15,874 nt of DNA from Candidatus Hydrogenedentota bacterium (GTDB lineage Bacteria; Hydrogenedentota; Hydrogenedentia; Hydrogenedentales; SLHB01): assembly GCA_029974275.1 (NCBI GenBank), contig JARKSN010000209.1, forward strand, positions 1 through 15,874, written 5' to 3'. The notes under the pieces were generated by a model. It did not search any database, was not told where the DNA came from, and saw only the letters and a list, made by a program, of their open reading frames with translations. Positions 12,026 to 15,441 of the stretch are shown piece by piece; the first letter of the stretch is position 1, and each line of letters opens with the position of its first letter. Made by a program: the position numbers and the translations under genes.

Positions 12026-12696
12026 TCGTATGCCTCCTCGAGAGGCGGCGCGACGAGACCTTGGCGCCATGACGCGATCAAGTGAGGGCGAGAGGCCATC
12101 ACGGTCGAAAGAATCGCGACGGTGATGATGGCCTCGCCGATGCCGATGATGGCGTGAATGCCGGCCATTGCGGGCAGCGCCGCCTGCAACGGAATTGTGC
12201 CGGAAAAAGCCAGTTCGCCGGCGCATGCCGCCGACGCCAGGACGACGGAAGACCAGGAGGCCAACGCCGCGCTTGTCAAAAAGCCGGTTCGCGTCTGCGG
12301 CAGCAGGGCTTGGAGCGAACGGAACACCGCATACCCGCCAATCCCGCCGACGATGCCCATGTTGAAAATGTTGGTTCCGAGCGCGGTGAGACCGCCGTCG
12401 GCAAACAGCAAACACTGCAACGTCAACACGACCGTCATCACGAGGCAGGCGTTCAAGGGACCCAAGGCGATCGCCGCGAACAGCGCCCCCAGAAAATGAC
12501 CGCTCGTGCCGGCGAACACCGGGAAATTCAGCATCTGCGCCGCGAAAATGAATGCCGCCGTCACGCCAAGCAAGGGGGCATGATCCTCTTGGAGCGTCTT
12601 GGCGGCGCGGGCCGCAGCCCTTCCGCAAACCGCCGCAGCCACGGCGAACGCGGCCACGTTCACCGGCCCGCTCACCATCCCGTCGGGTATGTGCAT
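12022..12696 (-). CDS. cbiM: ECF Ni/Co substrate-binding S component (NikM/CbiM)
   Basis: Diagnostic N-terminus MHIPDG, plus FAAQMLNFP, GTSGHFLG and LFADGGLTALGTNIFNMG. SD GAGGTG. Confidence 0.94.
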   Translation of the reverse strand: MHIPDGMVSGPVNVAAFAVAAAVCGRAAARAAKTLQEDHAPLLGVTAAFIFAAQMLNFPVFAGTSGHFLGALFAAIALGPLNACLVMTVVLTLQCLLFADGGLTALGTNIFNMGIVGGIGGYAVFRSLQALLPQTRTGFLTSAALASWSSVVLASAACAGELAFSGTIPLQAALPAMAGIHAIIGIGEAIITVAILSTVMASRPHLIASWRQGLVAPPLEEAYE

Positions 12697-12718
12697 GGAA
12701 TCACCTCTTGCTTGTCAG

Positions 12719-12745
12719 GTAATACGTCGCATACGAACGTAATAC
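12719..12745. promoter_or_regulatory. NikR-type operator GTAATAC-N13-GTAATAC
   Basis: Two identical quasi-palindromic 7-mers (12719-12725, 12739-12745) 13 bp apart, covering the predicted TSS of the MNQO operon. Matches the general GT-N3-AC, 13-bp spacer form of NikR boxes. Confidence 0.7.
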
Positions 12746-12746
12746 C

Positions 12747-12775
12747 ATTATGCCGCATGCCGCGCCCCGAAGCAA
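12747..12775 (-). promoter_or_regulatory. Sigma70-type promoter TTGCTT-N17-CATAAT of the MNQO operon
   Basis: -35 at 12775-12770 and -10 at 12752-12747, 1 bp from the operator. Confidence 0.6.
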
Positions 12776-12884
12776 CAAAACGCGCCTGGACGCCGCGCCG
12801 GGGGGCGAGGGGAGCATAGGGGGAAGAAGCCGTTTCCTCAAAGCGTTTGATCCAACACGAACCGTCGCGGCTAGGTCGCGCGCC

Positions 12885-12923
12885 AAAAAAGGAGGAGCGG
12901 CGGGCCTTGGGTGCCCGCCGCTC
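12885..12923 (-). terminator. Rho-independent terminator
   Basis: Perfect 11-bp stem GAGCGGCGGGC/GCCCGCCGCTC with a 7-nt loop, followed on the minus strand by CTCC-TTTTTT. Confidence 0.72.
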
Positions 12924-13124
12924 GTTGCGGGGAGTATCCGAAACCTTTTATTCGTGCGTCTTTTGGCGCAAGATGCCACGAACCATTGTCCTGAAACCAT
13001 TGGGCTGCGGTCTGTTGGCCTCAGTACTCAGCAAAATGGGCCGTTCCTGGCCTTGGTTTGCAAACGACGACATGGTGCATTGCCGTCGTTGGCCCGGTCC
13101 CACCCGCTGCGGTATTCGGATACC
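12885..13124 (-). ncRNA. Candidate structured small RNA (~190-nt folded core, ~240 nt with terminator), family unassigned
   Basis: Bounded by a consensus promoter and a terminator. The predicted 5' end GGUAUCCGAAUACC pairs with GGUUUCGGAUACU (12945-12933). Internal hairpins AACGACGGCA/UGUCGUCGUU and UUCGUG/CACGAA. No ORF with a well-placed SD. Confidence 0.55.
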
Positions 13125-13130
13125 GGCCCC

Positions 13131-13159
13131 ACTATATCGCAACATATGGTGCGTGTCAA
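13131..13159 (-). promoter_or_regulatory. Sigma70-type promoter TTGACA-N17-TATAGT
   Basis: -35 at 13159-13154, 17-nt spacer, -10 at 13136-13131; 11/12 consensus. Confidence 0.75.
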
Positions 13160-13323
13160 TCTATTTCTCAAAGGTCATTTTTGGACATGAATCACAATAT
13201 ATAGATTTGATGTAAAGACCAACACATCATATAGGTGCTTCTTAAAAAGAAAAAAGGATATGACCGAAGCTAAAGCGCTCTCGCTTCGTGGTGTCGTCTT
13301 TCGTCAAACACAATATATTGTGT
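13137..13323. promoter_or_regulatory. Cluster of four NrdR-box-like operators
   Basis: Compared with consensus acaCwAtATaTwGtgt: tcgCAACATATGGtgc (13137-13152), tcaCAATATATAGatt (13192-13207), acaCATCATATAGgtg (13222-13237) and acaCAATATATTGtgt (13308-13323, perfect 16-bp palindrome). Confidence 0.68.
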
Positions 13324-13464
13324 AATCTTGCGCTTCTGGAAAATGGGGTTGTCGGTCAGGCTGCCCTTTGCCTCGCGCTCGGAAGACCTGCAGGCGGACA
13401 CAGCGGTCGCCTCGAACGCGACGAGGACGAGAAAAGCTGGTTTGTCACGGAAGAGGGGAGCAGG

Positions 13465-13504
13465 AGAAAACAAGAAGCGCTGGTTTTTGTGAAACCAGCG
13501 CCTC
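13465..13504 (-). terminator. Rho-independent terminator of the small peptide gene
   Basis: 13-bp stem GAGGCGCTGGTTT/AAACCAGCGCTTC (one G-U pair) with a 5-nt loop, followed by TTGTTTTCT; 26 nt after the peptide stop codon. Confidence 0.7.
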
Positions 13505-13530
13505 AACAAACGAGTCTAATGATTCGAGAA

Positions 13531-13623
13531 TTAGAACCACCAGAACAGCAGCACCGCAAGCGGAAGCAGAATCCACCAGCCCCAGCTACCGAAATCAAAC
13601 AGATCTTTCCAATCCTTCTCCAT
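13531..13623 (-). CDS. 30-aa Trp-rich small membrane peptide MEKDWKDLFDFGSWGWWILLPLAVLLFWWF
   Basis: SD AGAAGGAG 7 nt before the ATG, TAA stop, its own promoter and terminator. Charged N-terminus plus a ~17-aa hydrophobic helix. Below the ORF-track size cutoff. Confidence 0.75.
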   Translation of the reverse strand: MEKDWKDLFDFGSWGWWILLPLAVLLFWWF

Positions 13624-13716
13624 TGTCTTTCTCCTTCTGTGTTTTCCTGACCGTTACGCCCCTCTCTGGGCAGGCGGTTTGTTCACTATCGAAAAACCGC
13701 CACCGATAACGAGCAT

Positions 13717-13745
13717 ACTATAATCATTTGTACAGGCAATGTCAA
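13717..13745 (-). promoter_or_regulatory. Sigma70-type promoter TTGACA-N17-TATAGT of the peptide gene
   Basis: -35 at 13745-13740 and -10 at 13722-13717; predicts a ~87-nt 5' UTR. Confidence 0.75.
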
Positions 13746-13878
13746 CTCTTTTTCATTACTACCCAAATACTCCCATCGCATCACTATTTTTTGCAGCGGA
13801 CCGGGAGGCCGGGCGGCGAGTTTTCCGGGAGATCCGCGTCGGCCTCTTGTCTTTTGGCTCTTGCCCCCGATTTTTGGA

Positions 13879-13884
13879 TATAAT
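13879..13884 (+). promoter_or_regulatory. Candidate -10 element (TATAAT) for glgA
   Basis: Perfect TATAAT 75 nt upstream of the ATG. No good -35 at 17 bp. Confidence 0.35.
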
Positions 13885-13959
13885 GCGTCCAGGAACGCCT
13901 GTTCCGGATGTTTTTCACGTGCGGAGGGCGCTTCCAGGGTGGTATCGAGAGGAAAATCC

Positions 13960-15441
13960 ATGCCGATGACGTCAAAGCCGTTGAAAATTCTGTACGTTTG
14001 TTCGGAAGTGTCGCCGCTGGTGAAAACGGGCGGACTGGGCGATGTGTCGTACGCATTGCCGAGGACGCTGCGGTCGTTGGGGCACGATGTGCGCGTGGCG
14101 ATGCCGTGTTACGGGACGATTCCCTTCGAGGTCCGCGGCGCGCAGGTGGCGATGTGCATTGCCGATATGGGATGGACCACGGCGTACGGCGCGCTGCGGC
14201 AGACCCATGTGCCGGGCACGAGCGTGCCGTTGTATCTGGTCGAGCATGACGGGTATTTCGACCGTCCGAATCCGTATGGCGGGCCGGAAGGCGAATACTG
14301 GGACAATGTCGAGCGGTTCAGTTTTTTCAATCTGGCGCTGTTGGACGGCATCGCCAATACCGGCTGGACGCCGGACCTGGTCCATTGCCACGATTGGCAT
14401 GCGGCCCTCATCCCCGCACATATCAAGACTCGTTTGGCGCGGCATCCTGTCTGGGGCGGCATGCCGACGCTCTTTACCATCCACAACCTTGGGTATCAAG
14501 GGCGGTATGCGGGGGGGATGTTTCCGAAAACGGGGCTGAGCTGGGAATATTTCACGCCGGAACACCTTGAGTTCTACGCCGGCATCAACCTCATGAAAGC
14601 CGGGATTGTCTTTGCGGACGCGCTCAGCACGGTCAGTCGCCGCTACGCCGTTGAAATTCAAACCCCTGAGTACGGACATGGCCTCGACGGCGTCTTGCGG
14701 ACGCGCGCCAAGGACCTCTACGGCATTGTCAATGGCGTCGACTACGACAAATGGAATCCTGCCTGCGACCCGCGCATCGCCGCGACGTTTACGGCGGACG
14801 CTGTCGAGGGCAAGGTCGTCTGCAAGTCGGATTTGCAGCGGCATTGTGATTTTCCAAAGAGTCAGGCCCCCTTGTTTGGCATGGTTTCCCGGTTGACGTG
14901 GCAAAAGGGCATTGATCTGCTGGTCGACATGATTGACGCCATGCTCGAACAAGACGTGCAACTCGTCGTTTTGGGAAACGGAGACGCTTATTACCAGGAT
15001 CGTATGGCGCAATCGGCGCGGCGTCATCCCAAGCGCATGCGGCTGTTCCTCGGATATGACGACGTCCTGGCGCATCGCATCTATGCGGGGAGCGATTTTT
15101 TCCTGATGCCTTCGCACACCGAACCGTGCGGTCTTAGTCAGTTGTACAGTCTCGCGTACGGGACGCTGCCGATCGTGCGTCGCACGGGCGGCCTTGCCGA
15201 TACGGTTCAGCCCGTCACGCGCGCGAACCTGGCCCGCAACAAGGCCACGGGGTTCGCGTTCAGCGCCGCCACGGCCACGGCCCTTTCCAGCGCCGTCAAT
15301 CGGGCCATCGCCCTGTACGACGACAAGAAGACGCTCGCCCAGATGCGCCGCGCCGCCATGCTCGAAGATTTTTCCTGGAAGCACTCTTCCCAAGAGTACG
15401 AGCGTCTTTACCGCAAGGTTGTGCGCAAGCATGTCTCCTGA
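13960..15441 (+). CDS. glgA: Glycogen synthase (GT5)
   Basis: SEVSPLVKTGGLGDV (KTGG motif), HCHDWHAAL, FTIHNLGYQG, GIVNGVDYDKWNP, SRLTWQKG, PSHTEPCGLSQL, RRTGGLADTV and DFSW. SD GAGAGG before the ATG at 13960. Confidence 0.96.
   Translation: MPMTSKPLKILYVCSEVSPLVKTGGLGDVSYALPRTLRSLGHDVRVAMPCYGTIPFEVRGAQVAMCIADMGWTTAYGALRQTHVPGTSVPLYLVEHDGYFDRPNPYGGPEGEYWDNVERFSFFNLALLDGIANTGWTPDLVHCHDWHAALIPAHIKTRLARHPVWGGMPTLFTIHNLGYQGRYAGGMFPKTGLSWEYFTPEHLEFYAGINLMKAGIVFADALSTVSRRYAVEIQTPEYGHGLDGVLRTRAKDLYGIVNGVDYDKWNPACDPRIAATFTADAVEGKVVCKSDLQRHCDFPKSQAPLFGMVSRLTWQKGIDLLVDMIDAMLEQDVQLVVLGNGDAYYQDRMAQSARRHPKRMRLFLGYDDVLAHRIYAGSDFFLMPSHTEPCGLSQLYSLAYGTLPIVRRTGGLADTVQPVTRANLARNKATGFAFSAATATALSSAVNRAIALYDDKKTLAQMRRAAMLEDFSWKHSSQEYERLYRKVVRKHVS

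Follow-up and report, generated by a model that had tools for sequence, protein, structure and literature searches.

Four NrdR boxes in a 15,874-nt contig of a Candidatus Hydrogenedentota bacterium (the window, by which we mean this whole stretch of DNA) would together be a true NrdR operator at the promoter of a free-standing structured RNA gene, a reading to which we assign a probability of roughly three in four. Regulator and motif are known; judging by sequence comparison, what would be new is the RNA-gene target and an unusual operator layout that is conserved across the phylum. An earlier note on this DNA had put forward NrdR control of a small RNA at this place, and the proposal has since gained support: nrdR is present in the genome, the same motif lies on the nrdR and nrdD promoters, and the box in the promoter spacer is found in 85 of 90 RNA loci. 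We infer a link from dNTP status to RNA regulation. The elements concerned are, in order of position:

12886..13126, minus strand: structured non-coding RNA of 241 nt, covariance model score 199.9 bits, one copy in the genome
12895..12923, minus strand: intrinsic terminator, an 11-bp stem and then a T run, with the loop CCCAAG conserved across the phylum
13131..13136, minus strand: -10 hexamer TATAGT; metatranscriptome contigs end just downstream, at 13117-13128
13137..13152: NrdR box 1 (P box), within the spacer between the two hexamers of the RNA promoter, reading GCACCATATGTTGCGA in the RNA sense
13154..13159, minus strand: -35 hexamer TTGACA, promoter match 11/12, invariant in a 12-sequence alignment
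13192..13207: NrdR box 2 (U1 position), 55 bp upstream of box 1
13222..13237: NrdR box 3 (U2 position), 30 bp from box 2 and 85 bp from box 1
13308..13323: NrdR box 4 (U3 position), a 16-bp palindrome identical to the consensus, lying 171 bp upstream of box 1

Four boxes at the RNA promoter

Mismatches were counted against the NrdR box consensus ACACWATATATWGTGT, from which boxes 1 to 4 differ at 5, 3, 5 and 0 positions, with 8/10, 10/10, 8/10 and 10/10 matches in the 10-bp core; the description of one perfect box, one 10/10 core and two 8/10 cores in the earlier note was thus accurate. Published mutagenesis found box positions C4, A6, A8, T9, T11 and G13 to be critical (PMC13584703, available to us as an excerpt), and these are kept at 6/6 in boxes 1, 2 and 4 and at 5/6 in box 3. 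On a matrix made from relatives' boxes the four score 11.5, 11.3, 11.8 and 26.4 bits, respectively. Box 4 is the sole perfect consensus match in the 4.38-Mb genome, where a composition model predicts 0.001 (1 seen), and it is also the top matrix match genome-wide. Boxes with at most two mismatches are likewise in excess (6 seen genome-wide vs. 0.7 expected), as are those with at most three (19 vs. 10.9). Five-mismatch 16-mers number 489 in the genome, with 0.37 expected per 240 bp of the local composition, and boxes 1 and 3 would not be significant by score alone; they are validated by position, because boxes occur in relatives at matching distances from the RNA start. The pattern of the six critical positions, CNANATNTNG, occurs 694 times in the genome, about once per 6.3 kb, and seven times in the window where shuffles give 2.91, three of the seven falling inside the 187-bp stretch that holds the boxes.

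That stretch is AT-rich, as had been remarked (41–46% GC vs. 60.5% for the genome), and the earlier observation that box 1 fills the -35/-10 spacer also holds: the near-consensus promoter on the minus strand has a 17-bp spacer, of which box 1 takes 16 bases. The starts of boxes 2 and 3 do lie 30 bp apart, so that the notion of boxes spaced by three helical turns stands for this pair; it fails for the promoter box, which is without a partner at that spacing. The linker between boxes 2 and 3 is 14 bp, at the edge of the tolerated 14–17 bp, while boxes 1 and 4 lack such a partner; this sole canonical pair does not cover the promoter but sits farther upstream, beyond the -35 hexamer.

A conserved structured RNA gene

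BLAST detected the 3' half of the RNA in 22 of 40 relatives (23 of 41 when the source genome is counted). A covariance model, built from a 12-sequence alignment whose consensus structure showed compensatory changes, extended this to 111 of the 133 genomes of the order and 111 of the 135 of the Hydrogenedentota phylum, nearly always with one copy per genome and with scores of 46 to 248 bits across 12 families. Among 91 distinct sequences, compensatory change on both sides is seen in 36 of 46 pairs, and 93.7% of cells are paired, vs. 41–52% when the partner columns are slid. The RNA of the window has a fold energy of -102.7 kcal/mol (z = -3.75) and an architecture of four helices plus the terminator; invariant throughout the phylum are the closing helix, the GCAGCCCAA loop, the CUCUUGCGCC loop, a CCCCGCA single strand and the CCCAAG terminator loop.

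Rfam 15 gave no match in the window at gathering scores and none for 12600-13900 at E ≤ 10, and ARAGORN found nothing in the window. The 6S, SRP and RNase P RNAs and the tmRNA all lie on other contigs of the genome, and the RNA described here is therefore a further conserved RNA. On its sequence comparisons, it is an uncatalogued, phylum-wide, single-copy conserved gene family. A coding reading of the region was ruled out by indels that do not come in threes and by the covarying helices. A scan with a pattern derived from the RNA proved unspecific in GC-rich genomes (120 stretches, with the covariance model confirming one of 80 loci, L024) and was rejected.

About a fifth of the sampled words of 12700-13700 were present in ten metatranscriptome runs. 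Whole contigs that fall inside the RNA with zero mismatches came from three runs of three studies (12911-13121, 211 nt; 12929-13128, 200 nt; 12927-13117, 191 nt), and a fourth run from a fourth study contributed a contig that matches over 12991-13120 and runs on into the sequence of a relative. Together these RNA contigs cover 12911-13128, and their 5' ends fall just downstream of the -10 hexamer; the flanks and 13142-13549 are uncovered by the contigs of the four runs, which is not evidence of silence. Such contigs carry neither strand nor level and may include DNA carry-over, and we treat them as supportive of the presence of the RNA in RNA libraries, not as proof.

On the same strand downstream of the RNA come cbiM (190 nt away), a PDGLE-domain gene, cbiQ and an ABC ATPase gene; upstream is a starch-synthase gene, beyond a small 30-codon gene. 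The latter (13533-13625, minus strand) encodes a hydrophobic Trp-rich peptide with no Pfam family and is served by a near-consensus promoter (13745..13717) and a terminator (13504..13474) of its own; a single metatranscriptome contig spans 13553-13697.

Conservation of the boxes across the phylum

We examined 90 of the 111 RNA loci, that is, the window and 89 relatives from 12 families, leaving out the 21 weakest or fragmentary matches, and called a box at 10.5 bits on the matrix from relatives' RNA-promoter boxes. The promoter in relatives is laid out as TTGACA, one base, a 16-mer close to CCACWATATRTTGTGG, and then TAnnnT. A spacer box of at least 10.5 bits is found in 85 of the 90 loci and in all 12 families sampled, counts that are not independent among kindred genomes and thus overstate the support. 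An independent test on the six critical positions gave 6/6 in 77 loci and 5/6 in eight. As to the five loci below threshold, two (L205 and L220) were shifted by the model start and have their box at another offset, and three (L166, L216 and L224) are degenerate; one relative (G019, loci L166/L015) has the RNA and nrdR with the box absent. The upstream DNA around the boxes is too diverged for BLAST and the RNAs themselves spread over 46–248 bits, from which we conclude that the promoter box is under selection. The TG of an extended -10 element comes, in relatives, from the 3' end of the box, whose conservation may in part reflect promoter function.

The boxes farther upstream are also far from random. 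Above the same threshold 106 were seen upstream of the promoter box, vs. 2.0 ± 1.3 (maximum 6) in composition-preserving shuffles, and they fall into three clusters:

U1, 50-62 bp from the promoter box: box in 8 of 85 loci
U2, 83-102 bp from the promoter box: box in 35 of 85 loci
U3, 129-171 bp from the promoter box: box in 45 of 85 loci

Within 220 bp there is one box in 26 loci, two in 27, three in 26 and four in six. Those of the window, at 55, 85 and 171 bp from box 1, occupy each cluster once, so its four-box layout represents the fullest form of a phylum-wide design, and the four boxes are best described as one instance of a putative conserved multi-box operator. The window's promoter box, at 11.5 bits, is the weakest among the loci that keep one, and its distal box is perfect. 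A partner for the promoter box at 31–32 or about 42 bp is present in none of the 85 loci. Helical phasing depended on the period assumed (Rayleigh R of 0.22 at 10.5 bp and 0.57 at 11 bp) and is confounded by kinship.

NrdR and its motif at reductase genes

The earlier note had made its proposal hinge on the genome having nrdR, and the gene is there: TIGR00244 matches at 205.9 bits (cut-off 124.65) on C334:20893-21333, and the protein sequence has the typical Zn-ribbon and ATP-cone. Each of the nrdR and nrdD promoters carries a pair of boxes: at nrdR they are spaced by 33 bp and cover the -35/spacer and the start site, and at nrdD (C268:118570-118640) they are spaced by 32 bp and lie around the -35 and -10 hexamers. 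With the window excluded from its making, the matrix from relatives' RNA promoters has 36 matches of at least 12 bits in the 4.38 Mb, among them the nrdR promoter boxes (19.6 and 15.0 bits) and an nrdD promoter box (17.0 bits). The suggested check by weight-matrix scoring and comparison with the boxes at nrd genes thus ranked box 4 first and recovered the nrdR and nrdD boxes. Six regions were checked in relatives: a box lies upstream of nrdD or a class I/II reductase gene in three of them, and is absent upstream of three NrdD-like genes with two ATP-cones. The gene nrdR occurs in 125 of the 133 genomes of the order, including the relative whose promoter box is absent, and a test of nrdR against box presence is therefore powerless.

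The reductases of this genome are NrdD and a second NrdD-like protein; a PF02867 gene (class I or B12-dependent reductase) was found nowhere in it, at 100% estimated completeness. The second NrdD-like protein (C222:79-2571) has 830 residues and two ATP-cones, with no NrdR box upstream of its gene, and in one relative (G035) the counterpart of that gene is found some 2.7 kb downstream of nrdR. The nrdD start codon is separated from the box-bearing promoter by a leader of about 450 nt (C268:118650-119098). The other strong matrix matches, on C167, C24, C222, C57, C193, C325, C329, C336 and C298, lie next to genes whose families are unknown or unrelated, and no replication-related regulon was seen among them.

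Alternative explanations

In relatives a small zinc-ribbon gene (PF09723) often lies upstream of the RNA and points away from it (20 of 29 family loci). Only box 1 might then act on the RNA, with boxes 2–4 serving a promoter on the plus strand, in relatives that of the zinc-ribbon gene and here a promoter-like site, TTGATG-17-TATAGG (13208-13236), which overlaps box 3; we read this site by eye, and the promoter scan did not list it. The only canonical pair, boxes 2 and 3, stands clear of the RNA promoter. We consider this division of the boxes unlikely, though it is the likeliest of the alternatives. The U3 box occurs equally often whether the zinc-ribbon neighbour is absent (5 of 9 loci) or present (11 of 20), and in the source genome the zinc-ribbon gene is on another contig, C73, with no box above 8 bits, so that the boxes stayed with the RNA; nor does any conserved plus-strand gene follow the boxes in the window.

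The palindromes might also be bound by another regulator, or reflect mere promoter architecture in the form of an AT-rich spacer with an extended -10, whose TG is indeed overlapped by the 3' half of the promoter box in relatives. Such readings seem improbable to us: the same 16-mer with its six critical positions lies on the nrdR and nrdD promoters of this genome, it recurs on reductase promoters in half of the relatives' regions checked (3 of 6), and upstream boxes remote from any -10 element retain the full palindrome.

With cbiM only 190 nt downstream on the same strand and terminator read-through conceivable, the RNA could be a cis-acting leader or riboswitch of a cbiMNQO cobalt-transport operon, and NrdR would then control cobalt uptake. 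This is very unlikely. Comparison of the cbiM-glgA interval, which the earlier note had recommended, placed neither CbiM nor GlgA near the RNA in any of the 29 family loci, and the genes downstream of the RNA in relatives differ in identity and strand. Rfam, even at E ≤ 10, finds neither a cobalamin riboswitch nor one of another kind, the genome is without a B12-dependent or class I reductase, and the RNA contigs stop within the RNA, which is a weak hint in the same direction.

The note was right that the window has no ribonucleotide reductase gene; its further thought was that an nrd gene, since lost or moved, had left its promoter here as a relic and the RNA as a leftover leader. Nothing was found in favour of this, and it can be set aside with near certainty: no NrdD homologue was found up to 1.5 kb from the RNA at any of the 29 family loci, and a PF02867 gene stands beside it in none of 54 family genomes (18 have one elsewhere, the nearest 15 kb away on the same contig). 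The RNA ends in a terminator of its own, has a covarying structure and is single-copy in 111 of 135 genomes. The relic and cobalt-leader readings alike fail because nrd genes, cbiM and glgA are absent beside the RNA in the 29 relatives.

Proposed mechanism and comparison with known NrdR systems

If the boxes form an NrdR operator of the RNA gene, plentiful dATP would yield dATP/ATP-loaded NrdR, whose binding at box 1, in the spacer between the two promoter hexamers, would keep RNA polymerase out. NrdR at the 14-bp-linker pair of boxes 2 and 3 and at box 4 would aid repression at box 1, and boxes 55–171 bp apart would probably be joined by protein bridging or DNA looping, which we propose because the promoter box lacks a partner at canonical spacing. 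When dNTPs run low, NrdR would leave and the RNA would be made together with ribonucleotide reductase.

As far as the excerpts of two studies go, NrdR needs two boxes with a 15–16-bp linker, linkers of 14–17 or 24–27 bp being tolerated, and a lone box is unbound by E. coli NrdR (PMC13584703, PMC12051234). The layout predicted here agrees in part with the reductase operators of E. coli (nrdAB, nrdHIEF, nrdDG) and S. coelicolor (nrdAB, nrdRJ), as far as the material on them extends: the 16-bp partial palindrome and its six positions are the same, a box overlaps the RNA polymerase site, and for one pair, boxes 2 and 3, the linker falls at the edge of the tolerated range. It differs from them in its target, a non-coding RNA gene and not a reductase operon, and in that the promoter box has no partner at 15–16 or 24–27 bp and that up to four boxes extend over about 190 bp. 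Multi-box operators with proximal and distal sites are known from Listeria monocytogenes nrdAB (four boxes) and S. pneumoniae nrdHEF (three), as excerpted (PMC12051234); Listeria has two canonical pairs with 15- and 16-bp linkers, whereas here there is one pair, with 55, 85 and 171 bp to the promoter box. Box placement outside the reductase genes, and without a canonical partner, has a parallel in P. aeruginosa topA, where according to the available part of the report a single NrdR box mediates activation rather than repression (PMC4409342). In that case NrdR activates a protein-coding gene; here the box lies in the promoter spacer of an RNA gene, so repression would be expected, and extra boxes lie upstream.

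Within the literature searched, itself seen partly in excerpt, topA was the only non-reductase NrdR target that we found with experimental backing (PMC4409342), and the structural literature, to the extent consulted, terms NrdR an 'RNR-specific' repressor (PMC9110341). Our full-text search, which had supplements, RegPrecise and Rodionov and Gelfand 2005 outside its scope, returned no report of an NrdR-controlled RNA. The boxes, read in this setting, suggest that NrdR may also act through an RNA. If true, an RNA output kept across a whole phylum would be added to dNTP sensing, and a new RNA family seen in wastewater metatranscriptome assemblies would gain its first functional handle. The operator would also be a natural test of NrdR at lone or widely spaced boxes, against which in-vitro data argue. 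The proposal could be put to the test with a heterologous NrdR, because such proteins bind foreign sites, at least in the part of the mutagenesis study available to us (PMC13584703).

What the RNA itself does can be addressed with low confidence only. Its C-rich conserved loops and the frequent neighbouring zinc-ribbon gene lead us to guess that it may act in trans as a regulatory RNA or be the RNA component of a ribonucleoprotein, relaying dNTP status to other genes. Fur and RyhB exemplify a metabolite-sensing repressor that governs a regulatory small RNA. The arrangement proposed here resembles theirs in outline, in that the repressor of a metabolic regulon gates an RNA gene and could carry the signal to further targets; the RNA, with 241 nt, four helices and a terminator, exceeds typical base-pairing small RNAs in both size and degree of structure. 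We ran a duplex-energy scan of three conserved unpaired segments of the RNA against 5547 heuristic translation-start regions, in which neither the nrdD mRNA (ranks 1815, 5220 and 4596 of 5547) nor the nrdR mRNA (1815, 1451 and 214) gave a signal. A bolder view, which we entertain as speculation and would not bet on, is that in this phylum NrdR is not reductase-specific, and that its strongest and most elaborate operator guards an abundant, phylum-wide structured RNA as the post-transcriptional arm of dNTP control, possibly through a ribonucleoprotein with the neighbouring small zinc-ribbon protein, and with repression by DNA looping between non-canonically spaced boxes in place of the textbook tandem pair.

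Additional observations

The PF09723 gene mentioned above encodes a small zinc ribbon of FmdB type and lies about 300 bp upstream of the RNA on the opposite strand (20 of the 29 family loci, L143-L171); its product is a possible protein partner of the RNA.

A stand-alone NrdR-type zinc ribbon of 62 residues (PF22811, 43.8 bits; L002:581-769, plus strand, on contig C172 of the source genome G000) has no ATP-cone and follows an ORF of 176–196 residues, with weaker similar matches in a few relatives; it could be a competitor for NrdR boxes.

Two NrdR-like boxes of 17.6 and 21.8 bits (C167:27258 and 27316), 58 bp apart, lie between a divergent AAA_22 gene and the gene of a 669-residue protein without a Pfam family. 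Another strong box (20.1 bits, at 15092) lies in an AT-rich intergenic region, C222:14860-15110, together with several 9-mers that by eye we take to be DnaA-box-like, and this region is a possible replication origin with an NrdR site.

The same short sequence is found at the ends of contigs C192, C260, C44, C193, C73, C331, C61, C127, C121 and C74, which suggests a mobile element that broke the assembly, and this repeat may be the reason that in the source genome the zinc-ribbon gene is found on another contig than the RNA.
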